Source: Acaryochloris marina MBIC11017 (GTDB taxonomy: Bacteria > Cyanobacteriota > Cyanobacteriia > Thermosynechococcales > Thermosynechococcaceae). Taken from it: a DNA stretch of 32,000 nt. This document shows positions 1,042 to 13,915 of the stretch, piece after piece. The first letter of the stretch is position 1, and every line of letters begins with the position of its first letter. A program made the position numbers and the translations under genes. The notes beneath the pieces were generated by a model. The model did no database searches. It was not told the origin of the DNA and saw only the letters and a list, made by a program, of their open reading frames with translations. Where the stretch lies: the NCBI RefSeq assembly GCF_000018105.1, contig NC_009929.1, positions 60,001 through 92,000 of the forward strand, read 5' to 3'.

Positions 1042-4000
1042 ATGACTGCAACAAAAGACGAAACACTGACCATTGTTCCTGGCTGGAGCGAGGATAATTC
1101 GAGCGATACCCCAGACGCATTGAAGGCATTCCTAGACACCAAGCCGATTAATCGCAGTACCTATATCTCTGCCCCTGGATATTCGTTTGATTTGGAAGTC
1201 CATCACTGGGGTGATCGTTTTACGATTACAGCTCGAATGGGCGAGGATGCCTGGAACATTTACAGCTCCCACACTTTTGACTTCAGCGACCAGGAAAGCT
1301 CTACAGATAGTTGGTATCGATCAGATGATATTCAGATGACTCCACAGCATTACGAAGCTGTGACCAAGCTTATTGGCGATATTGGCATTGAAGGGCCAAC
1401 TATACCTACAGAGTTGAGCGGCTGGGTGAGTCAGGACCGAAGTGAGTCAAGGCATTTAAATTTTCGGTTCGAGGATAAAGGGAACAGGCATTACCTGGGA
1501 CTCGACCTGGTTAGGCATGGCGACCCAGATAAGATTGACAGACTGATTCGTGATCATCGTTTTGATGAGCTGGTTGCTCTGGCAACTGGTGAGACAAATG
1601 CCCACCTGAATTATCCCCACCATGCAAATTTAACCAATTTGAGTCCTCGACAGATTGAGGATTTCATTCTAGCTGAGGCTGCTTGCTTAGCCCCAGAGTA
1701 TGAGCTAGAGCCTCACCAGATGCAAAATATCCTCCAAGACATGTCAGCTTCAGTACTGAACTCTCGGGGATACAAGCCAGACTATGGGTATCAGATTGCA
1801 GCAGGTAATTCAGTCGAGCCTCGGACTAATGACTTCAGATCATCGGTTACGTGCAGGGGGGAGTGGGCACTGGAATTTAATTGGGAAGATGACTATCACT
1901 CGATGCCACTTGGTGGTGAACCGGGTGATACCTTCCAATCAGACGAGGATCGGGCCGCAGTCGTCACGGATTATGGGAACCTGGGCGCGATTGAGAAGAT
2001 GATTCAAGATTCTCGCTTTCGTGAACTGGCAACTGCTTCAGTCAGCGCCCCTGCTCACTACCATTACTACCCTGAACTGAACAATATGCAAGGGGTATAT
2101 CCAGAGGTAGCCAAGGAAAGAATAGAATCCCACCTGCTTCTTGTCGCTACTGAATATGGCCTCGCGGAACGAGGGGTTCGGTTGCTTGAGGATATGCGAT
2201 TGAAGGTGATGGAGGATCGGGGAGACCACAAGAACCACTCCTACGATGGATTATTGGGAATTGATCGTGTACCCCAAGATGAGTTGCAGCAAACCTTGCC
2301 AGAGCTGGATGTGAAAGCATCTGGTGTTGAGCTGCTGCCTAATATTCAGGAAATACCCCAATCAAACCAACAGCCAAACATCGATCTTTATCAATCCTTA
2401 TACGGAGCTGCTGATCAATATGGAGACTTCGATGTTGGTTTTACTGAGCTGGCATTGGGTAATGGGTACTCTGTGACAACCACCGATCAAAGCTTGAATA
2501 TTTTCAAAGATGATGAGCGAATCATTCACGTTGTCGCTGAAAACCCCAGCCCTTATGATGGATTTTTGCAAGAGCCTTTGCAAATAGAGGACAAGACTAC
2601 TCCAGGACAGAGAGAAGAGCTTCAGGTTGAGCTACATGAGCTAAAGCAGTGGGCAGAGAGAGATTTTGAAAAAAACCTTCAGGAAACACCAATCGCGGAA
2701 GGTGCTATTACCTTAGAGCAGTTAGCGAATAACACTCAGCAGATTAAAGGGCTAGCTGACACTCAAGTAACTAAAACGCCTTCTGTTCCCATCATCAAAT
2801 CCACTCAAAACGTTTTCTGGATCACCCATGAGGCTAGCTACCTTAAAAGTAATCTGACCTGTGTCAAAACAACCAGAACCCATACCCAAGCAAAGCTTGA
2901 TGCCTACTACATAATCAATGAAGGCTATGATCATTACGAGATTAATGATATTGAGCCACTGCCAGAATCTGTCTGTCACTTACTGGTCAAATTCTTTGGC
3001 TATGAGATTTGTGAGTATGATGATTCAGCGATAGAGATAGACCTGCTGTACATCTGGCAAGGGCCAAGAGATCCTGATATTAAGGTAGGAAATAAGAGCT
3101 GGTATCTGTGGCTGAATCTGTCAAGATTCCGCTGGGGGTTTTATCCCGAGCTAATGGCAATCATGGAAGGTCGCCTCAACGTTAATAGGTTGCCCCAGTA
3201 TCCTTGGAATTCTCAGCATGAGTCAGTGACTGGCTGGGATTGTGGTGATTATGTCATTGAAGTAGCGTTTAATTTGTTCAACAGCCAATCAGAGGCTGAA
3301 GAGTTTGGGGAGTCCTGCTATGCCCTTGCTCTCTATGAGGAATATTGCAACCTTCTCAAGCTCCTCTACATCGATCCATATGGTGATGAACAGCGTACCC
3401 CTATCCGCAAGGATGAGGTTAAGGTCTTTCTCAGTTCATCCGTTTTTGATATCAGGTCTGGAGATCTGCGTGATCGCGATGAATGGGAGCTTGTCCCAAT
3501 AGATGAATGGGACACCCCTAGTCTAGTTATTGGCGCTCAACTTTACTGCCAAGGTCGGGATGCTAAAGCAATAATAGCGTTAGAAATTCAGGAGCTGGGT
3601 GAGAAGGCGCATGACAAAGAGGAGGTGGTAACTGAGTCATTCAACGAAGACCAGTCTCCTGAGTGTATTCAAGAGGATCTGGAAAATCATCTAACTGTGG
3701 AGTTGATCGACGGTGAAGGCGAAACCCAAATTCGGCAACTCAGAATGACGATTCGAGATGTGGTTGTTGGTGTGAAAATTGGTTTTGAATCCTATCGAGG
3801 TGGGTTTAAGTCATACTATGAAGTTGATTTATCCGTTGTCGAGTCGATTGCAAAAGATCCACGTTTCAAGGAGCTGGTTGCTATCTCATCTGGGATGATC
3901 GATTACCCCTATGTAAAATACCCGGATTTTAGTAATGTCCAATGTTTGGACTCTGGAGATGATTTGAAGCGATTCGTCGAAAGTCGGGCATATAAACTTG

Positions 4001-4683
4001 GCGAAGAGTATGGTGATTCATCAATTGCTGGGAAGCTGATCGACGAGGTAAATCATTGCTATGCCCTGGAAGTAGATGTTTCTAGATATAAGATCCGCAA
4101 CGACGCAGTAAAGGGTATTCCTTTCAAGCCGTCAAAATTTAGAGGTGGCAAGATCGACCAAAGCGGTCGCCTTCCTGAATCCTATGTCAGTGTGGGCAAG
4201 GTTTACACCGACGACCAGACAAAAAATCTAGAATTGCCGATCAGGATTGGCTCTGAAGAGTTTACTGTGACCGTGGGTGTCGAAACCCAGAATGGCACGA
4301 GCTACAGCTATGGCGATTCATTAGAGCCTGTTCAGGGTATTACCCAGGACCAAAGATTCAATGAGCTGGTGGCAGCGACTGCTGGGATTAAAGAGTATCC
4401 CTATACCCATAATTTGGATTTTCGACATCCAGACAAACTAACGGTTGAAGAGGTGCAATCTACCATTAATCGACGTGCTGAGATCCTTGGGGAGGAGTAT
4501 GGAGTAAGGATTATGGGGGAGTCTTTGGTGGCTTGCATTGGCACTACTTATGCTGCATTACGAGGAACCACCAGAGAAGCTTTATTGCAGAGCTTTGTTG
4601 ATCCCAGTCAAGAAATTGAGCTAGAGGCGAATTGCCAATGCGAAAACAGTAGATCGTCCGATCAGGTTCTCACGAGTAGTTAA
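1042..4683 (+). CDS. large hypothetical protein (1213 aa) with four copies of an unrecognised internal module
   Basis: Uninterrupted 3.6 kb frame with GGAG about 10 nt upstream of the ATG. The repeated core D-x-R-F-x-E-L-[VA]-[AT] occurs at nt 1552-1578, 2008-2031, 3856-3882 and 4348-4374. No Walker A motif seen. Confidence 0.85.
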   Translation: MTATKDETLTIVPGWSEDNSSDTPDALKAFLDTKPINRSTYISAPGYSFDLEVHHWGDRFTITARMGEDAWNIYSSHTFDFSDQESSTDSWYRSDDIQMTPQHYEAVTKLIGDIGIEGPTIPTELSGWVSQDRSESRHLNFRFEDKGNRHYLGLDLVRHGDPDKIDRLIRDHRFDELVALATGETNAHLNYPHHANLTNLSPRQIEDFILAEAACLAPEYELEPHQMQNILQDMSASVLNSRGYKPDYGYQIAAGNSVEPRTNDFRSSVTCRGEWALEFNWEDDYHSMPLGGEPGDTFQSDEDRAAVVTDYGNLGAIEKMIQDSRFRELATASVSAPAHYHYYPELNNMQGVYPEVAKERIESHLLLVATEYGLAERGVRLLEDMRLKVMEDRGDHKNHSYDGLLGIDRVPQDELQQTLPELDVKASGVELLPNIQEIPQSNQQPNIDLYQSLYGAADQYGDFDVGFTELALGNGYSVTTTDQSLNIFKDDERIIHVVAENPSPYDGFLQEPLQIEDKTTPGQREELQVELHELKQWAERDFEKNLQETPIAEGAITLEQLANNTQQIKGLADTQVTKTPSVPIIKSTQNVFWITHEASYLKSNLTCVKTTRTHTQAKLDAYYIINEGYDHYEINDIEPLPESVCHLLVKFFGYEICEYDDSAIEIDLLYIWQGPRDPDIKVGNKSWYLWLNLSRFRWGFYPELMAIMEGRLNVNRLPQYPWNSQHESVTGWDCGDYVIEVAFNLFNSQSEAEEFGESCYALALYEEYCNLLKLLYIDPYGDEQRTPIRKDEVKVFLSSSVFDIRSGDLRDRDEWELVPIDEWDTPSLVIGAQLYCQGRDAKAIIALEIQELGEKAHDKEEVVTESFNEDQSPECIQEDLENHLTVELIDGEGETQIRQLRMTIRDVVVGVKIGFESYRGGFKSYYEVDLSVVESIAKDPRFKELVAISSGMIDYPYVKYPDFSNVQCLDSGDDLKRFVESRAYKLGEEYGDSSIAGKLIDEVNHCYALEVDVSRYKIRNDAVKGIPFKPSKFRGGKIDQSGRLPESYVSVGKVYTDDQTKNLELPIRIGSEEFTVTVGVETQNGTSYSYGDSLEPVQGITQDQRFNELVAATAGIKEYPYTHNLDFRHPDKLTVEEVQSTINRRAEILGEEYGVRIMGESLVACIGTTYAALRGTTREALLQSFVDPSQEIELEANCQCENSRSSDQVLTSS

Positions 4684-4731
4684 CCCCAGCTAAGGTGCAA
4701 GCTTTCACCTGGCCTTGTACCTTGGGCATCT

Positions 4732-5419
4732 GTGTCAAGCAAGCGGTTGCTGGAGAAACCAATCACCTGCACTAGGGCAAAGACCTTGCAGCAAGAACTG
4801 GATAAACATCGTCAGATCAATAAAGAGCCGCTTGCCCAAGTTTCAAAAATTGTAGATCTTGAGGATGAGGTTGAATTACTACGTTCTCAGAATCGAGAGT
4901 TGCTGGCTGCGCGGAAAGTAACTCAAGAAAAGGTGGTCAACTTACCAATTAGAAACCAGCCTGTGCACAAAAGTGATGTTAGAAAGGATAACTTTTCTGT
5001 GCAGATTAAAACTGAGCTAGAAACACTTGGGATTAAATTAACGAATACGCTACGCAAGACAATGGAAGTTGCGCATGAAGAAACTGTTGTCGAGGCCATT
5101 GAAGCCTTGATAACAGCTCTAGAAACAAGTGATATCAAGAGTCCTGGTGGGTTGGCTTAAAAAAGCTATCGAAGGTGGTTGGAGTCACAATGAAAGGCTC
5201 CAGAAACAAAAGAAGGTTCTGTATCCTGAAGGATTTAAAAAGTGGCATGAACAAGCAGTAAAGGTTAACTTTGTTCTAGATATTCCTATAGAATATCTAA
5301 ACCTTGATGAACGGAATGAAGCAAAAGTGAAGATAAATAAGCCAGGAATCTTTGGTGCACCTTATAGGGATCTGCATTGGAAGGAAGCTAAAATAGAGAT
5401 GCTAAATTTTCATAATTAG
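4732..5419 (+). pseudogene. single gene broken by, or requiring, a +1 frameshift (tracked as ORFs 4732-5160 and 5129-5419)
   Basis: The two ORFs overlap by 32 nt in adjacent frames. Skipping the T at 5152 (GGG T TGG) joins ...DIKSPGG to WLKKAIEGGWSHNE..., which reads as one continuous motif. Confidence 0.55.
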
Positions 5420-5452
5420 AATACATTTATATTATGAAAATTTAGCATCTCT
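5395..5452. repeat. 22-bp perfect inverted repeat with a 14-nt loop
   Basis: Arm agagatgctaaattttcataat (5395-5416) pairs with attatgaaaatttagcatctct (5431-5452). The loop contains the TAG stop (5417-5419) of the preceding ORF. It sits exactly where composition drops to AT-rich. Confidence 0.9.
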
Positions 5453-5546
5453 TCTGAGGAATGAGTTAATTTATTTTTATGAGAAATTTGGAAAAATATT
5501 CTTGCAAATCCTCTTGATGCTGCCATAGAGTAAAATTTAATCATAA

Positions 5547-7403
5547 ATGAGAAATAATCATAAAAAGAAAAAATTCAAAAAACAGAAAGACAATAACCCT
5601 CTAGACACAAAACAAATAGATTTAGAGATCCGTCTTGATGCAATTCTAAAAAGTAGATGCGGGGGAGCATATAATATTAATGGTATTAGATACCAAATCC
5701 TATATTCTATACTTAGAGGATTAGAACTCTATAATACACAATGCTCATTTAGCTCCATTAGATTAGAAGGTATTGAAGATTTAGATTGTCTAAAAATCAA
5801 CTTAAATAATGAGTATATACAAATTAAAACATCTAAAAACTCATGGAATTGGGCGAAGCTAAAAGAACCAGTTAAAAACTTCTTAATAGTTCTAAGTGAA
5901 AGTCCTAATTCGCTTTTTTCAATAGTTTTAAACTCTACATTTAAATCGGATGTTTTGAAGTTATCCAAGAAAGATAAACTTAACTCTAATGAATATGAAG
6001 GAATCAAGAATAAATTCATAAAATTATGTTCTGATGTTGGAGCTTCAAGAAATGAGGCTGAATTACTTTTTGAAAAAATAGGTATTAAGAATTTACCAGA
6101 GAAAGAAATTTATGAGGAGATAAAAATAGGGCTAACGAACGATTTTCAATTAGGTAGCAATCTAGTAGACACATACTTAGCTGTTCTAGTTAGTAAGTTT
6201 CTTTACTGGGCACAAGAAAGAGTAACTATTTCAAAAAAAGATATAGAGTTAATCAGAGTATCAATTGGTGACCATATTGCAAGTGAAGAACATCAAGCTT
6301 ATGGAAGAGGATTGATTGACAGGATATCTTGGAATATAGATGATAAACAGTCAGATTTTTTTGAAGGCAAAGGTACAAGACCTGGTCAAATATCAGCTGG
6401 TGTTGATGTAAGGAGAATACGCTGGCTGGAAAAAATTGACACTGCAATATATAAAACTAAAATTTGTGTACTCAAATCTTCCAGTGGTCAAGGAAAATCT
6501 GCACTACTTTACAGGTATGCTTACGAATACTGGAGGCATGAAGAGATTTATATTCTAAGAGTTGCTGAAACTGATGAACAAGCAGAGGCAGTATGTAAAT
6601 ATATTAGATTTATAGATAGCTTAGGCTTACCAATTCTCTTGCTTATTGATGATGCTGGGTTTCGAGCCAGAAAATGGCCTCAAATAGTTCGAGAATGTGT
6701 ATCACTGGGCATATATGTTCTAATGTCGGTTAGACATGAAGATTGGTTTAGATTTGCTAGAAGGGATATAACGAACTGGGAAGTCATTGAGCCAACTTTA
6801 GATTTAGCAGAAGCAAAGCAGATATATTCGACATTAAAAGCAGAGAATTATGTACATTCAAACGCTACGTCTCCTGAATGGGCATATGAAAAAATTGGTA
6901 CACCTAAACTTCTAATTGAATATACATATCTACTTACTCATGGGCGCATGATTGAAGACAGGCTCAGAGATCAAATTCAGCAGATTCAAGACCATAAAGA
7001 AGACCCTGCAAAAATTGAAATTCTAAGAAGAGTTGCACTGGCCGATACTCTCGGAACGCCTGTAGTTGCAAGTAGATTAATCAAGGACATTTCCCTAAGC
7101 TCAGACCCTCAACAACTTCTTAAATCACTGGTTGATGAGTATATAGCACTAGAAGAGACAGGAATACTAAGAGGTTTACACTGGGTTCGTTCAAATCACT
7201 TGACTTCGATTCTTCACGAAGGATATCCAAATATAGTAGACACCTTACTAAAGACAATAAACTCAGTCTTAGATATTGATCGTAAAAGATATATTGCAAA
7301 ATCATTATGCATAAATGATCTTAATCTGAATGAGTTTATTACTGGATTATCACAATTAGTCTCAAATGAAGACTTAATGACTTTTCTTGGCGTTGCTCAA
7401 TGA
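5547..7403 (+). CDS. N-terminal fragment (614 native aa plus GVAQ from the IS) of an IS-split Cap4/DUF4297-like nuclease and P-loop (STAND-like) NTPase
   Basis: Nuclease-like signature: GG (aa 39-40), RYQ (48-50), EGIEDLD (74-80), IQIK (91-94). Walker A SSSGQGKS is at nt 6477-6500 and Walker B LLLIDDA at nt 6636-6656. The last four codons and the stop lie inside the IS left inverted repeat. Confidence 0.8.
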   Translation: MRNNHKKKKFKKQKDNNPLDTKQIDLEIRLDAILKSRCGGAYNINGIRYQILYSILRGLELYNTQCSFSSIRLEGIEDLDCLKINLNNEYIQIKTSKNSWNWAKLKEPVKNFLIVLSESPNSLFSIVLNSTFKSDVLKLSKKDKLNSNEYEGIKNKFIKLCSDVGASRNEAELLFEKIGIKNLPEKEIYEEIKIGLTNDFQLGSNLVDTYLAVLVSKFLYWAQERVTISKKDIELIRVSIGDHIASEEHQAYGRGLIDRISWNIDDKQSDFFEGKGTRPGQISAGVDVRRIRWLEKIDTAIYKTKICVLKSSSGQGKSALLYRYAYEYWRHEEIYILRVAETDEQAEAVCKYIRFIDSLGLPILLLIDDAGFRARKWPQIVRECVSLGIYVLMSVRHEDWFRFARRDITNWEVIEPTLDLAEAKQIYSTLKAENYVHSNATSPEWAYEKIGTPKLLIEYTYLLTHGRMIEDRLRDQIQQIQDHKEDPAKIEILRRVALADTLGTPVVASRLIKDISLSSDPQQLLKSLVDEYIALEETGILRGLHWVRSNHLTSILHEGYPNIVDTLLKTINSVLDIDRKRYIAKSLCINDLNLNEFITGLSQLVSNEDLMTFLGVAQ

Positions 7404-8184
7404 CGGGATGACTCACGCAGGAATAGGTACTTCCCCAAACTTGAGATAGTGGATCAATAGTCGAATTGAATGCTTGAGCATGTCCACCGACTTTGAATAA
7501 CATAAAGTCTTGCGATGGAGCCGTGCCAAGTAATGTCGTAAACGAGTATTTTCTCCCTCTACTCGTGTCATGTAGGTCTTGCTAACAATCTGGTCACCCT
7601 CTGGGATAAAGCCTGGATAGACGGGATTGCCATCACTGACCCAGAAAAAACATTGCCAACAGACGATTGCTTGCCATAACGGTCGAAAGGTCTCAGCACT
7701 ATGGTCACCCACAACCCAGCCTAGAATGCCGGGGTGAAAATGATCCACCACAGTCCAAATCCAGACCTTATTGCGTTTTTTGCCCACAAAGGTTTCGAGT
7801 TCATCTAATTCTCCGACCTGTGGGATATCGTCGGGGTCATAAGCATCGGGTAATAGAACTCCAACTTGTTGAACCCAATGAATCACAGTGGTATGAGCAA
7901 CGCCTATGACTCGTTCGATACCCTTCAACCCCATTCCATTGACATACATTCTCAGGCAGAGTCGTTTCGTCCAATCACTGTAGCCACGCTTTGAGTAAGT
8001 TGAAAGAAACTGTCGTCCACAGGTCACACAGATATGATTTTGTTTACCTCGACGATGCCCATTCTTATGGATATGTTGACCACCACACTCAGGACACTTC
8101 ATACAGATTCCTCATGATGTTTGAAATAGTCATGAGGTTATCCTGACGCAATCCAATTAATTCATCCCGTCATTGAGCAACGCC
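7389..8184 (-). mobile_element. IS1-family insertion sequence (796 bp)
   Basis: Perfect 23-bp terminal inverted repeats: GGCGTTGCTCAATGACGGGATGA at 7389-7411 and its reverse complement at 8162-8184. An 8-bp direct repeat CTTTTCTT flanks them at 7381-7388 and 8185-8192. Size, inverted-repeat length and duplication length fit IS1. GC is host-like (33/60 on line 7681-7740) inside an AT-rich gene. Confidence 0.9.
7413..8102 (-). CDS. IS1 family transposase, single fused ORF (229 aa)
   Basis: N-terminal zinc finger CPECGG...CVTCGRQF, an HTH-like GIERVIGVAHTTVIHW, and DDE-type segments (IWTVVDH, VSDGNPVY, EGENTRLRHYLARLHRKT). Confidence 0.9.
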   Translation of the reverse strand: MKCPECGGQHIHKNGHRRGKQNHICVTCGRQFLSTYSKRGYSDWTKRLCLRMYVNGMGLKGIERVIGVAHTTVIHWVQQVGVLLPDAYDPDDIPQVGELDELETFVGKKRNKVWIWTVVDHFHPGILGWVVGDHSAETFRPLWQAIVCWQCFFWVSDGNPVYPGFIPEGDQIVSKTYMTRVEGENTRLRHYLARLHRKTLCYSKSVDMLKHSIRLLIHYLKFGEVPIPA

Positions 8185-8192
8185 CTTTTCTT

Positions 8193-10376
8193 GAGTATTT
8201 AGAGGGAATTTATGAAGGTGGAGAAAGACTATGTTTTCAGAAAAATAAACATCTTTTTGAGCAATCATATGAATTACAAGGAACAAGAGGTCCACAATTT
8301 CTAGTCATATATTCATCACCAATTATCAAAAATGAAAAGCTAGATAATTCTTTAGATAGCTTAGCTAATAATATAGCTGCCTTAGAAGATATTCAGTCTA
8401 TCTCGTCAAACTTTGATAACTCATTAAGAGGTATAGAGTTATGCAGAGAATTCTTGCAGCAAATTCAAGATAAAATTTCAATTACAGGTGCTCAAAATAA
8501 TTTTGCCCAGTTAGGTAAGATTTTAGACTGGTCAGCATTAGCAGAAGTTACATTACTTAATTGGCATGAATTATTATCAAATATTTCATCGACACAAATA
8601 ATTTTTGAATTATCAATAGATGAATTTTGTATATTTTCTCAAGGATTTTATCGCTATGATTCCAAAAAATATTGTGATTGGTTTAATCAGAATTATGACT
8701 CTATTATTGGATATTTGAAGCTTAATCTTGACTGTTTATCGCTTGAATTATTTGATGATGAATTATATTTCGAATTCTTAGTTGATTTGAATTCTGATGA
8801 TCCGAGTGGGTATGAAGAAACAAATTCACGACTAAGGAGATTTCGTTCAGCAATTCCTTTTTGTAAACAATATCAATCACATGGAATCTGGTTGTCGATA
8901 AAAACACCATTATTTAATGATACAGATAAAAATGTGAATAAGGATTTACTACCTTATAGTTCAGATGGTACTAAAGTTAATACTTGGCATGAAGTTGCCT
9001 ATTCAAACTTCATACCCGATAGTTATTATGATTTTCAAAAGGCATGGAATCTCATCAGAACCGATGCAATTGAATTTGTCAAGTATTTATCAAAATTTTT
9101 TCGTAGTCTTCTTACTCATGGCTCGGATCCAAAAATAAAAAATCATACCTCAAATATAGAAGTTTTTATAACTTTAGATAAAGCACTCGATAACTTTCCA
9201 TCTAGCTATGATGATAGTTCCGAGATAATTAGTTCATTACTACCATGTTCCTTACAAACTATCTTGAAAAAAGATAGTTATACAAATAAGTTATATCAAA
9301 GTTTTCATACATTTTTTTATAAAATGCGTGACTCTTTATTAAATCCAGAAAGTATAAATAACACAAAAGATATTATATTAAATTCATTCCTATTTGCTAA
9401 TTATTATTTACCAAAGCTACACCATGAATTTGATACGCTATTTGAATCTTGTCCTGATTACTTCAATATAAAATCGTTGAACTCAATTGAGAAGTCTGCT
9501 TATAGTACTCTAGAAGATTTGTTGCAGGCATGTTTTTCATTTAAAATTTTTCTAATTAATGAAATAGAAAAAGAATTACAAAAATCAAGAGAATATCAAG
9601 TTCAGATTTTAACTAATAAAACAACTGAAGTATCTAATTTCTTAAAAGATATTGGTATCGATACAGTTTTATCATCAGATGTATATAATCTGTATGATGA
9701 AAAACATGATTACATAAATAGGTATTTCTCTCTTGCTTTCTCTGTCCATAATCCATTGAATTATCTTGAAGTTCTCAGATCAGTACTCGAAGCTATTTTA
9801 AAAATAAGTAATATTGCAGATTTCTTCTGCCTAATTCCTGTTTACAAAGAAAAATTGTTTTTACCACCAAGAAATGGATATCATATTAGCTCCCTTTCAC
9901 TACTTAATATTCTAGGTAGTGGTGAAGATCTAAATTTACTTGAATTAGTAAGTATTACCCATTCTTTGACCATTCAAGAACTACCAGAATCTACTTTTTC
10001 ATATCTGCCAGAACTAGAGTATGAAGAATATCTCCCTTTAACACTAAAAGGTGAAGCTGTAGCACTATATACATTAGTAATATCACTTGTAAAATACGCT
10101 CGAGCTATTCACAGACTTATGGCAACAAGAAATGATTATGAAGTTAAGCTTTATGAACAACATCTTAGTAAAATCTATGCTTTTAACAGGAATATTCTCA
10201 ATAAAATTCATGAGTTAAAAGATAAATTTGCTTCATACTCAAACCAGCAAATTATTGACATGAATTTACTTAGTTTTCAACAATTCATTTATAAAGCATC
10301 TGAAAACTTAGAAACACCATCAATTGATAATATTTTATCTATTGATATATCTTCTGATTCTATTGATTTATCCTAA
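8193..10376 (+). pseudogene. C-terminal 727-codon fragment of the IS-split nuclease-NTPase gene (tracked from TTG 8454)
   Basis: The frame is open from 8193, immediately after the right target-site copy. 8193 is in phase with 8454 (261 nt apart) and with codon 7386-7388 once 7389-8192 is removed. No ATG, GTG or TTG occurs in frame between 8193 and 8454. Very AT-rich. Confidence 0.75.
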
Positions 10377-10741: not shown

Positions 10742-12997
10742 CTAATTCTCTTTCAAGGTGGCAGCAAATCGTTTTCGTAGCAAGTCATGGACAAAGCGGT
10801 ATCGACCACCAGTCCGCTGAATGAATCGTTGGTTTTCGGCATGGTCGAGGAATCTTGCGTAGTTCCAAGGAGCGACCCCTGAGTGATAAAGGGCTATTCG
10901 CAAAGATAGGTGTTTACATGCTGCATTTAAGCCGAAAATCAACCCTCCAGTCAGCCCTCCAGTCAGCCCTACAATCAACCCTCCAGTCAGCTCGTTAAAT
11001 AGCCCGCCAACTACCCCACTAATCAGCCCGAAAATTAGCCAAACAATCAGTCCATTGCTGATAGAGTCTTTAATCCCTTGATTAGCATTTGTTTTATCCC
11101 GAGCATCAATTTGAGAAGCTGTTATTCCGCTAATTAGCCCAAAAATCAGCCCACAACTCAACCCGCCGAAAAGCCCGCTACTTAATCCGCTACTCAACCC
11201 GCCAAATAGTCCGAAAATCAGCACGCTGCCCAGTCCGCTTCGATAGAAAGCACCCCAAGAGAAGCTGAGCTTTTCTGATGTTGTGATATGAGTCAGTCCG
11301 CCAAATAGTCCGAAAATCAGCCCGCTACTCAGCCCGAAAATCAGACCGCTACTCAGCCCGCTACTCAACTTGTGAATCAGCCCATAAATCAACCCGCCAA
11401 TCAACCCACCAATCAGTCTGAACATCCAGCAATACTGATTATAAGCTTTGGAAGTATCCAACCATGAAGGTTGCAATTTCTCAATTAGAAACTCTGCTGA
11501 TCCTTCAAAATCTAGTTTGCTTGCTAACCAACTTAGATAGTGATGTGTTTGCTTTGGAGTGGGAGCCTTTCCTTTGGGGTATGCTCCTCGAAGGTTCAAA
11601 TCATAGAGTTGTTTATGGATATATTCATCTAGTAATTCTTCTGTACTACTTATGTTTTGCCCTTTATACGCAACCACTAAAATAAGTAGAAATAATGGTG
11701 AATGAGCTAGTTTCATGAGTTCAGGCTGGCTTTGAAGTGCTTCCCATAATGAATCTCGCTTTCGTTCCGGGAGCTTTAGCTTATGGAGATAGTCATGAAT
11801 CTGATCATCTTCTAGTGCCTGTAAGTAAATTGCTCCATTCAATTGCTTTAGATATTCCCCTTGTTGTTCAAGTGCTTCATATTCCTTGCGCCGACAACAC
11901 ACAACCAGGGGTAAAGCGAATCTAGTTAGAAAGGCATTGATTTCCCGTACGCATTGAATCTGTTTTGCTATCCATTGTTGGTCTAGAACTTCAGGTGTGA
12001 TCTCATCACTCGCTACTGCACGAATTTGACGGTTTTTATGGAAGAAAATTTGAAACGACGCAAATACCTTCCTAACTGCTGAGGGAATCCAAAATTGCTG
12101 GTGTCTGAAACCCCTAATTAAGGATTTCATTTTTGTTTGCTCGTAACCTTCAAATTTATGCACATCTACCCTTCTCAGTTCGTCTAAGCCATCCAGCAAT
12201 GGAAGTAACTGATGATGTCTCATCCAGTGCTTCGAAACAACGAAAGGGACACTATACTTCTCAAACAATTGCTGAGCTAGCCAATCAGCAAAATCCTGTT
12301 CTGCTTTCCATTCGGATAGTTGAAAGATTACGGGAATAGGTTTATCAAGTGATTGCTGTGCTTGGCTCAGTAAATCTCTAGCTAGAGCTAACAGTTCATT
12401 TGTCTTACCAGACCCCGGTTCTCCTAAGATCAACAAACGTCCTTTAATACTCTCCTGTTTATAGAGTTCTTGAGTAGATTTGCTGGTACTTACAGCTTTG
12501 GGTGGTGTGGATTCTAGGAAACGCTGGAATGTGCGTCTGATAAAATTTACGGTTATTTGTTCAGTTTCTTCTTCTTGAGCAGGTATTAAATTTCCCTGCC
12601 CAACCCGTTGCCGTTGCTCTTCCCTCTTAATGTCAATACGAATTTTGTTGTAGAGAGAGTCTTCCAAACGCTCAACAACTTGCTTGAGCAAGATCTCAAT
12701 TAGTTCTTCTCGTACTTTTTGTCGTTGCGCTTCTGTGATTTCAGGTTTCTTGCGAACGAGGTACTTTTGAGCAAAGACGATGATTGTATCTAGATTGCCT
12801 GTCCAAATAGCGATAGCTGTTGTAGCCACAGCTATAACAGCAAATCCTGCAACGCCCCACCTAATCGTTGGATTTTTGTTTAGTAAATCTATTACTGGAT
12901 TATTTTGTGAGTTATCCACTTGTTGGACTATGATGTTCGCTAGTATCCTCAGCAAATGAATTGTACGTAGGCTGCCCAATTCAGAAATTACAAACAT
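10742..12997 (-). CDS. NACHT-type STAND NTPase with an N-terminal TM helix and C-terminal glycine-zipper TM arrays (751 aa)
   Basis: Walker A GEPGSGKT at nt 12401-12424 and Walker B LLPLLDGLDEL. The N-terminal hydrophobic stretch is WGVAGFAVIAVATTAIAIW. There are three C-terminal hydrophobic blocks of GL-x-x-GL repeats. The tail ...WNYARFLDHAENQRFIQRTGGRYRFVHDLLRKRFA is typical of cyanobacterial NACHT proteins. Confidence 0.85.
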   Translation of the reverse strand: MFVISELGSLRTIHLLRILANIIVQQVDNSQNNPVIDLLNKNPTIRWGVAGFAVIAVATTAIAIWTGNLDTIIVFAQKYLVRKKPEITEAQRQKVREELIEILLKQVVERLEDSLYNKIRIDIKREEQRQRVGQGNLIPAQEEETEQITVNFIRRTFQRFLESTPPKAVSTSKSTQELYKQESIKGRLLILGEPGSGKTNELLALARDLLSQAQQSLDKPIPVIFQLSEWKAEQDFADWLAQQLFEKYSVPFVVSKHWMRHHQLLPLLDGLDELRRVDVHKFEGYEQTKMKSLIRGFRHQQFWIPSAVRKVFASFQIFFHKNRQIRAVASDEITPEVLDQQWIAKQIQCVREINAFLTRFALPLVVCCRRKEYEALEQQGEYLKQLNGAIYLQALEDDQIHDYLHKLKLPERKRDSLWEALQSQPELMKLAHSPLFLLILVVAYKGQNISSTEELLDEYIHKQLYDLNLRGAYPKGKAPTPKQTHHYLSWLASKLDFEGSAEFLIEKLQPSWLDTSKAYNQYCWMFRLIGGLIGGLIYGLIHKLSSGLSSGLIFGLSSGLIFGLFGGLTHITTSEKLSFSWGAFYRSGLGSVLIFGLFGGLSSGLSSGLFGGLSCGLIFGLISGITASQIDARDKTNANQGIKDSISNGLIVWLIFGLISGVVGGLFNELTGGLIVGLTGGLTGGLIFGLNAACKHLSLRIALYHSGVAPWNYARFLDHAENQRFIQRTGGRYRFVHDLLRKRFAATLKEN
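10920..11430 (-). repeat. in-frame short tandem repeats (12-nt periodicity) encoding GL(I/S/T)xGL glycine zippers
   Basis: Visible DNA repeats such as cagccctccagtcagccctccagtcagccctacaatcaaccctccagtcagc, and agcccgctactcagcccgaaaatcagaccgctactcagcccgctactcaac. Confidence 0.8.
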
Positions 12998-13411: not shown

Positions 13412-13915
13412 ATGTTATTCAAAATTAGACTCTTTGTTGCAGGATTAATGGGAGCAATTATAACATTTATAGGATTTTACATATTATTAGTTTTGACCGA
13501 CTTAATTGTTCCTTACACTAGTCGATTATACTTTCTGCATATAAATACTATTTTGCAGATATTAATTGGGATAATCCAAATGTTTGCTTTAATTGGTCTA
13601 GGTGATATTGTTGGTAGATTTGTATCATTTTTTGCAAAAAATAGATCAAGTAATTTGACAAGAAAGGTAGCAAGTTTTTCCTATCTATTTGGCTGCTCTA
13701 TTGTAGTAATTTTCTACTTTTCTAATTTAAAATCAGAAAATTTATCTAGGAATATATTTTTCAAGGCCGTTAATATAATACTGTCTCTTATTCCTTCCAT
13801 AATACTTACCTTGAGGACAGGAAGAGTAGAGCCTTTATATACATGGATTTTGATAATTCCTAGAGTAATTGGTATGTATGCAGGTAGTACCCAAGCCTAC
13901 GAACAAGCAAGCTAA
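13412..13915 (+). CDS. hypothetical multi-pass membrane protein (167 aa)
   Basis: At least four hydrophobic segments. AT-rich like the split gene. No SD sequence and no recognisable family. Confidence 0.55.
   Translation: MLFKIRLFVAGLMGAIITFIGFYILLVLTDLIVPYTSRLYFLHINTILQILIGIIQMFALIGLGDIVGRFVSFFAKNRSSNLTRKVASFSYLFGCSIVVIFYFSNLKSENLSRNIFFKAVNIILSLIPSIILTLRTGRVEPLYTWILIIPRVIGMYAGSTQAYEQAS

Follow-up and report, generated by a model that had tools for sequence, protein, structure and literature searches.

To our knowledge, all NLR/STAND mechanisms solved so far belong to soluble proteins with repeat-type sensors. The winged helix of a STAND protein holds ADP and swings away on activation, and ZAR1-type oligomerization clusters the N-terminal helices into a membrane-inserting, channel-forming bundle. 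A different layout, "TM regions inserted into the NACHT module" (TM, transmembrane), was mentioned by Kibby et al. for bacterial NACHT (bNACHT) proteins; that paper gives the category one sentence, tests no such protein and classes such TM regions as sensors. The protein discussed here belongs to this architectural class, already mentioned by these authors and uncharacterized. It is encoded by the open reading frame (ORF) 10742..12997 on the minus strand of a 32,000-nucleotide stretch of Acaryochloris marina MBIC11017 (hereafter the window), and its product of 751 aa plus stop is a true NACHT/STAND protein, in which a membrane module of about 180 aa is predicted to be inserted within the NACHT winged helix, between the first helix and strand of this fold and its recognition helix, wing and histidine segment. 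The reading favored here, which is given about an even chance, is that of a membrane-integral, NLR-like switch whose hairpin module serves a whole family as built-in sensor or anchor, with a role in conflict or immunity.

The NACHT identity, which an initial annotation of the window had proposed, is supported by several lines of evidence. Pfam NACHT PF05729 matches with 35.1 bits against a cut-off of 26.7 (E 1.5e-8), and a family hidden Markov model (HMM) run against PDB sequences finds NLRC4 at E 7.6e-7 with a match that covers the nucleotide-binding domain (NBD) and helical domain 1 (HD1). The top Foldseek matches of the full AlphaFold2 (AF2) model (predicted local distance difference test score, pLDDT, 82.7; predicted template modeling score, pTM, 0.76) are NLRC4, NOD2 and NLRP3, at E 8e-7 to 1e-4 and probability 1.00. 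NCBIfam returned P-loop-level matches only for the whole protein. In an alignment of this protein with 86 relatives, which is the basis of the architecture and conservation reported below, the P-loop residues G192, G195, G197, K198 and T199 are invariant and satisfy the pattern GxxxxGK[ST], and the Walker B motif holds D269-G-L-D-E273, the NACHT signature D[GAS]hDE as defined by Kibby et al. Both Walker motifs had been named in the initial annotation, Walker A with exact coordinates (Table 1). The rest of the module before the insert, residues 331-513, comprises the sensor-1/CCRR region, HD1, and the helix and strand with which the winged-helix fold opens (HHYLSWLASKL...EFLIEKLQPSWL).

In solved NLRs (NLRC4, NLRP3) the winged helix ends in a beta-hairpin, followed by an F-x-H....F-A-A helix whose histidine contacts ADP. 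In the AF2 model of the window protein, the insert is preceded by a helix (481-498) and a strand of two residues (502-503) and followed by a helix (713-722), two strands (726-729 and 732-735) and a last helix (738-750). This latter part is read as the second half of the winged helix; it is kept in all 87 aligned sequences, with F735 and H737 invariant. When a family profile from which the insert had been deleted was aligned by hhalign with residues 439-539 of human NLRP3, a segment checked to be 100% identical to the PDB chains, GRYRFVHDLLRKRFAATL was paired with KFYSFIHMTFQEFFAAMY at E 3.6e-4, and the tail RYRFVH737DLLRKRFAA (motif RYRFxHDLLxxxFA) aligned with the winged-helix strand-plus-histidine segment FYSFIHMTFQEFFAA of NLRP3, which supports a winged helix at the motif level only. 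Furthermore, the Foldseek alignments to NACHT-only NLRP3 constructs contain more columns than the target has residues (e.g., 624 vs 471), consistent with their spanning the insert. The protein therefore shares with NLRC4, NOD2 and NLRP3 the fold of NBD, HD1 and winged-helix domain and the F-x-H...F-A-A motif, but these animal NLRs are soluble and carry a leucine-rich-repeat (LRR) sensor after helical domain 2 (HD2), whereas here neither HD2 nor a repeat sensor is found and the 180-aa membrane module would split the winged helix. For annotation, this means that the "C-terminal" Gly-rich repeats appear to interrupt the NACHT module rather than to form a domain of their own; the protein does not end with them, as a conserved, nonrepetitive tail of 57 aa (residues 694-751) comes after them.

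The module itself consists of three hydrophobic, Gly-rich blocks joined by two loops, and the initial annotation had taken the blocks to be membrane segments, with one further TM helix near the N-terminus. Both proposals agree with the present predictions. A position-independent Hessa-scale hydropathy scan gave exactly seven minima, one at the N-terminal helix and two in each block; their sums lie between -0.7 and +2.4 kcal/mol, and the median over the whole protein is 20. AF2 prediction of residues 476-751 produced three helical hairpins (pLDDT 93.7, pTM 0.86). The charge-free length per block, with family medians of 44, 42 and 47 residues, fits two spans, and about half of the family sequences have a charged residue mid-block, at the presumed turn; the turns here are H542-K543, a Ser-rich stretch and N668-E669. 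By manual count, Lys and Arg cluster on the flanks that join the NACHT domain and the loops, with K543 alone at a turn. The blocks thus behave as predicted membrane helices by hydropathy, positive-inside pattern and AF2 hairpins of pLDDT >90, and seven membrane spans are predicted in all, the N-terminal helix plus six in the three hairpins. An amyloid or beta structure of the blocks was also considered and rejected, given their hydrophobic composition, their absence of charge and the confident helical prediction.

The N-terminal TM helix has a Hessa-scale sum of 0.73 and is followed by the positively charged KYLVRKKPE, and its predicted orientation places the N-terminus outside and the NACHT domain in the cytoplasm. 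The ATPase would then be a cytoplasmic domain tethered to the membrane twice, by this helix and by the winged-helix hairpins. In two Moorena relatives (P0078 and P0082), an extra TM segment and then a signal-peptidase S26 domain follow the tail (residues ~650-851); this S26 domain would lie outside the cytoplasm, as expected if the tail is cytoplasmic and the insert crosses the membrane an even number of times. Of the two loops between the hairpins, the second has N639, Q640 and G641 conserved in at least 90% of the sequences.

Transmembrane glycine zippers (Kim et al. 2005, PNAS), as in MscL, KcsA and VacA, reportedly drive tight packing of helices in oligomeric channels. The blocks have in common with such channels and toxins the repeated (G/A/S)xxxG spacing in hydrophobic helices, including the full (G/A/S)xxxGxxxG form, but here uninterrupted arrays of 5-10 units are built into hairpins, and they have no sequence or fold similarity to a solved example. 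Their composition is 20% Leu, 17% Gly and 12% Ile, with 25 GL dipeptides. They contain 22 G(i)/G(i+4) pairs, where 8.5 +/- 2.3 are expected (10,000 shuffles, maximum 18), and the Gly-Gly spacing across the family peaks at 4, 8, 12 and 16. The three blocks of period-4 GLxx units seen in the initial annotation are therefore confirmed, with a spacing beyond chance; of the two strings given there as examples, GGLIGGLIYGLI is exact at 11375-11410, while the other has a wrong first letter (K, not G, in HKLSSGLSSGL...).

The 12-nt tandem repeats that were said to encode the blocks are real but imperfect. Tandem Repeats Finder places 12-nt-period arrays at 10939-10991, 11132-11202 and 11293-11415, with 70-84% matches, and the only exact 12-mer duplication lies at 10946-10969, in hairpin 3. 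Within the blocks (10919-11431), 15 of 30 Leu codons are CTG, vs 6 of 75 elsewhere in the gene (50% vs 8%, p 5e-6). Blocks of 23 to 153 aa occur among the relatives, and their lengths often differ by multiples of four residues; the length of block 3 falls into a single residue class modulo 4 in 49 of the 87 sequences, with a nominal p of 5e-10 that is overstated since the sequences are related. The codon bias and this length class fit a history of duplication of a 12-nt unit. Slippage of the repeats, another suggestion of the initial annotation, is thus upheld on an evolutionary time scale, as block lengths vary between relatives, but not as a fast contingency locus, for which the repeats are too degenerate: synonymous differences separate the units in the gene, and the three copies of the protein in the databases form one cluster at >=90% identity, so that rapid, phase-variation-like slippage is not supported.

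A full-length search of 5.8 billion proteins gave 620 matches, most of about 700 aa and with >90% query coverage. The common order in the alignment is a variable N-terminus, a helical segment with R..SLH, a NACHT domain with invariant P-loop and DGLDE, and HD1, followed by YL.WLA......TEFLIE.LQPSWL, block 1, loop 1, block 2, loop 2, block 3 and the tail, whose consensus is IQH..LR..L...G..PWNY..FL.HA..HRFIQRVGGRYRF.HDLLRKHFA. The insert alone (residues 510-700), used as query against 1.84 billion representatives, found 882 clusters at E <=1e-3, and NACHT was detected at E <=1e-5 in 56 of the 62 full-length representatives found in this way. Short insert matches of 200-450 aa were considered as stand-alone membrane proteins and rejected: all ten that were inspected are fragments of the family, because they have a TEFLIE/LQPSWL-type segment or GLxx blocks in front of the insert and end in the family tail. 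The hairpin module was thus tied to NACHT in every protein examined. With the tail and the two conserved loops, predicted to be cytoplasmic, it makes up the core that a large family has in common.

Such a core might be a mere anchor at the plasma or thylakoid membrane, with sensing and action left to partners or to terminal domains. Most members also carry N-terminal TM helices, and possible partner genes stand at some loci (a Bell-like small protein, pentapeptide-repeat proteins), as this explanation would expect. However, one TM helix would suffice for anchoring, the six loci examined share no partner gene, and the six predicted spans, placed exactly within the mobile winged helix, are conserved in cyanobacteria, in Chloroflexota and even in an archaeon, in the company of two near-invariant cytoplasmic loops. 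This conservation of insertion and loops argues for a role in the switch itself, and a pure anchor seems quite improbable.

The ends of the proteins vary. Extra domains in the 62 representatives are TIR_2 (six), HTH (two), pentapeptide (two), EAD7, CHAT and DUF4062 (one each), and further relatives have an N-terminal EAD1 or EAD8, a C-terminal WD40, TPR or S26 domain, or a second STAND ATPase. A count of the hydrophobic segments ahead of Walker A in 91 relatives gave none in 23, one in 55, as here, and two or three in 13. Some relatives that lack the N-terminal TM helix begin with N/Q/G-rich motifs (P0112 and probably P0111, P0117 and P0119), an arrangement that recalls the bacterial amyloid-signaling (BASS) pairs of an NLR and a Bell-domain effector (Dyrka et al., bioRxiv 10.1101/2020.01.06.895854).

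P0112 is encoded at 5001-6869 of a Leptolyngbya sp. FACHB-321 locus (L087), behind a gene at 4588-4998 for a 136-aa protein with a hydrophobic N-terminal helix. P0112 starts with DRDIFNIDNKG and the protein encoded 3 nt upstream ends with GRDIFNVDNAG. By this match of N-terminal motif and upstream C-terminus, the two would be an effector/receptor pair of the amyloid-signaling type on a membrane-insert NACHT; the 136-aa protein is a candidate Bell protein, for which Pfam gave no match. The window protein differs from BASS pairs in having a TM helix instead of the amyloid motif and no such neighbor, and it shares no amyloid motif with the products of 13412-13915 and 8454-10376.

Because death- and immunity-type domains replace the N-terminal helix in relatives, the family probably acts in conflict or immunity, via abortive infection or programmed cell death. 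Its distribution is patchy, mostly in cyanobacteria but also in Chloroflexota, Calditrichaceae, Thiotrichales, Chlorobiaceae, Syntrophobacteraceae and the archaeon Methanocrinis. Paralogues occur within genomes, such as P0091 and P0108 on one 98,881-bp Mastigocoleus contig and two family loci (L040 and L084) on one Egbenema chromosome. The initial annotation had named conserved housekeeping surroundings of the orthologues as an outcome that would speak against it; six loci in different organisms gave six differing neighborhoods, several with other STAND, caspase, PIN or Uma2 genes, and no conserved partner gene was found across these six. The patchy distribution, the varied contexts and the TIR, CHAT, EAD and amyloid fusions make this look like a conflict/immunity family, and the place of the window gene, on a plasmid beside an IS-disrupted Cap4-STAND gene, agrees with this. 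A housekeeping or developmental role at the membranes of filamentous bacteria, such as membrane homeostasis or cell-cell communication, would account for the enrichment of the family in filamentous or multicellular lineages, for the ordinary metabolic genes around some loci and for the absence of a match to PADLOC defense models, but it agrees poorly with the patchy distribution, with several paralogues per genome, with a plasmid-borne copy in the window, with the variable neighborhoods and with the fused immunity-type domains and motifs, and is regarded as highly unlikely.

Members outside the cyanobacteria have the common layout, although in those from Methanocrinis and Anaerolineales apparently only two blocks are present, without the PNQGI loop. 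The former, from Candidatus Methanocrinis alkalitolerans (L029), has the family motif in front of the insert and the family tail. In Anabaena azotica (L086:1847-6914), a member without an N-terminal TM helix has two pentapeptide-repeat genes 19 nt upstream on the same strand, with which it may form an operon.

Much of this picture matches the bNACHT proteins of Kibby et al.: the NACHT domain with D[GAS]hDE, the variable N-terminal TIR, EAD or peptidase domains in relatives, the cyanobacterial and multicellular enrichment, and the TM segments that interrupt the NACHT module. The accession of the window protein is absent from their Table S1, which has no TM labels and whose sole Acaryochloris entry is an unrelated clade-11 NACHT. 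In the papers searched, there was no detailed description of the family, the triplet of GLxx hairpins, the conserved loops or the exact insertion point.

The module stays constant while effector and adaptor domains are swapped at the N-terminus, so that it occupies the sensor position of NLR syntax. The roles could be distributed the other way round, with the hairpins as the effector, which is the model of the initial annotation: NACHT oligomerization would assemble 6 x n helices into a resistosome-like pore or depolarizing ring, and sensing would fall to the NACHT module, the loops or partners. GxxxGxxxG zippers are enriched in homo-oligomeric channels and pore-forming toxins, the hairpin helices are marginally hydrophobic by the Hessa-scale sums given above, and a low-complexity, length-variable sequence suits a physical role more than recognition. 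Core-only relatives, moreover, have no other candidate effector, and the WD40 or TPR repeats after the tail of some relatives could be the sensor. Yet bacterial NLR effectors are typically N-terminal and swapped, and that is where TIR, CHAT, EAD, HTH and amyloid motifs stand in the family, whereas the hairpins are always present; a member with TIR or CHAT would be left with two effectors but without a sensor. If the module were a mobile effector cassette, other partners would also be expected, whereas it was found with NACHT only. Finally, a Foldseek search of the winged-helix-plus-hairpin fragment against PDB showed no similarity to a solved channel or toxin (best E 0.6, top matches all generic membrane proteins). 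Nothing here demonstrates a pore role of the hairpins, and this assignment is regarded as a serious rival that is less likely than the favored reading.

A combination of both roles can also be envisaged, namely, a one-protein sensor-and-executioner NLR without a soluble sensor domain. A membrane change (depolarization, thinning, or insertion of a phage channel or holin) would pull the ADP-clamping winged helix off the ATPase, and the same hairpins would then form the lethal conduit. This scheme must be considered unlikely.

In the favored reading, the hairpin module is the sensor or anchor of the switch, and a winged helix anchored in the bilayer would make nucleotide switching depend on the condition of the membrane, or on an agent that acts in or on it. 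A membrane-level cue would cause nucleotide exchange and ATP-dependent oligomerization, and the N-terminal modules would thereby be brought together, be they the TIR, CHAT, EAD or amyloid motifs of relatives or the TM helix rich in small residues here. The window protein would then act by damaging the membrane with its clustered N-terminal TM helices, perhaps aided by the hairpins. Of the earlier proposal of a STAND switch directly coupled to a membrane-perturbing effector, the NACHT switch and the predicted membrane helices are retained, whereas the effector appended at the C-terminus is not, as the module is predicted to lie inside the winged helix and is constant in the family. The likeness to plant coiled-coil (CC) NLR resistosomes of the ZAR1 type, in which STAND oligomerization clusters N-terminal helices into a membrane channel, would be a functional analogy only: ZAR1 belongs to the NB-ARC clade, has an LRR sensor and keeps its helices soluble until activation, whereas the window protein is predicted to be integrated in the membrane already in the resting state. 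If the reading is true, a large family (the 882 clusters found with the insert) would put the gating domain of the nucleotide switch itself in the membrane, innate-immune-type switches could read membrane integrity directly, and bacteria would have a counterpart to membrane-acting resistosomes. The natural TIR, CHAT and amyloid-motif variants would be built-in reporters of what activates the core.

Several points weigh against this reading. Pfam gave no match, even at E 10, for the pre-insert part of the winged helix joined to the tail, where NOD2_WH-type models were sought; a junction HMM run against PDB sequences gave no match at E 10 either; and the hhalign alignment of the insert-deleted profile with a canonical cyanobacterial NACHT (L001) ends at HD1. 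Since these junction searches were null, the winged helix is assigned from the aligned motif and the structure prediction, and the packing of the tail on the NACHT core and the geometry of the hairpins likewise depend on secondary structure, confidence scores and motif alignment. PADLOC matched the whole protein over P-loop-sized segments only (e.g., PDC-M54A, 48 residues, E 6e-5). The range of 23-153 aa in block length is loose for strict bilayer spans, and the hairpins present an almost featureless surface of Gly, Leu, Ile, Phe and Ser, which suits physical sensing or packing and not the recognition of a specific ligand. Relatives that have neither an N-terminal domain nor a TM helix imply that the core must also supply or recruit the output, and where WD40 (one relative) or TPR (another) follows the tail, the hairpins would be redundant as sensor.

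Table 1. Positions in the window of the parts of the NACHT gene and of its tail-to-tail neighbor
Feature	Positions	Strand	Residues	Basis and remarks
Start region	12917-12997	-		ATG at 12997 gives 751 aa; RefSeq GTG 26 codons in gives 725 aa; GenBank start 56 codons in gives 695 aa
N-terminal TM helix	12803..12859	-	47-65	WGVAGFAVIAVATTAIAIW; hydropathy, AF2 helix 43-65
Helical linker and pre-NACHT helices	12602..12793	-	69-132	Includes conserved R..SLH segment; alignment, AF2
NACHT nucleotide-binding domain	12086..12436	-	188-304	Pfam match
Walker A	12401..12424	-	192-199	GEPGSGKT
Walker B	12176..12208	-	264-274	LLPLLDGLDEL
In-frame 150-nt insertion	12008..12163	-	~279-330	Right after Walker B; alignment
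Rest of NACHT module before membrane insert	11459..12007	-	331-513	Alignment, AF2, HMM
Hairpin 1 (block 1)	11291..11431	-	523-569	Two GLxx helices, His-Lys turn
Cytoplasmic loop 1	11240..11290	-	570-586	Conserved motif I..E.L.FSW; short beta strand predicted
Hairpin 2 (block 2)	11117..11239	-	587-627	
Cytoplasmic loop 2	11054..11116	-	628-648	Consensus PNQGI..S..N, here ANQGIKDSISN
Hairpin 3 (block 3)	10919..11053	-	649-693	Asn-Glu turn
Conserved tail	10745..10918	-	694-751	57 aa; helix, beta-hairpin wing, helix; read as second half of winged helix
Split Cap4-nuclease and nSTAND5 gene	5547..10376	+		Tail-to-tail with NACHT gene; interrupted by IS1-family element

The product is identical to WP_238549383.1 / ABW32574.1 of A. 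marina MBIC11017, which stands on a 226,680-bp record and is labeled "NACHT domain-containing protein" or "conserved hypothetical protein (plasmid)". A search of PLSDB for the plasmid gave no more than a stretch of 75% identity in A. marina MBIC10699. The databases hold three starts for it, which give 751, 725 and 695 aa, and no clear ribosome-binding site precedes any of them. The hydrophobic stretch LLRILANIIVQQ, residues 14-26 of the long form, matches the WLWLLTA-type N-termini of relatives when aligned by eye, and for this reason the 751-aa start is tentatively preferred.

The allele in the window also contains a segment of its own. Residues 279-330 have no counterpart in any of the 86 aligned relatives, are modeled by AF2 at pLDDT <50 and correspond to an in-frame insertion with 18-nt imperfect inverted repeats at its ends (12017-12034 and 12145-12162). 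The insertion folds stably and has a GC content of 37%, vs 43% for the gene; searches of the window and of PLSDB yielded no further copy. It looks like a miniature inverted-repeat transposable element inserted in frame, and the activity of an allele with about 50 extra residues after Walker B is uncertain.

Around the gene, the ORF 13412-13915 (plus strand), divergent from it, encodes a very hydrophobic, multispan protein of 167 aa, and the ORF 1042-4683 (plus strand), upstream of the split Cap4-STAND gene, encodes one of 1,213 aa; neither has a Pfam or PADLOC match. The split nuclease-NTPase gene reported in the initial annotation as the tail-to-tail neighbor is indeed present, as a Cap4-nuclease and nSTAND5 gene disrupted by an IS1-family insertion sequence. 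This element (7389-8184) has perfect 23-nt inverted repeats and a transposase gene at 7413-8102 (minus strand), and it is flanked by an 8-bp target duplication, CTTTTCTT, at 7381-7388 and 8185-8192. The Cap4-nSTAND5 frame resumes directly after the element, and excision of the element with one copy of the duplication restores a single frame of ~1,340 aa, so the neighbor looks like a recently inactivated Avs-like defense gene.

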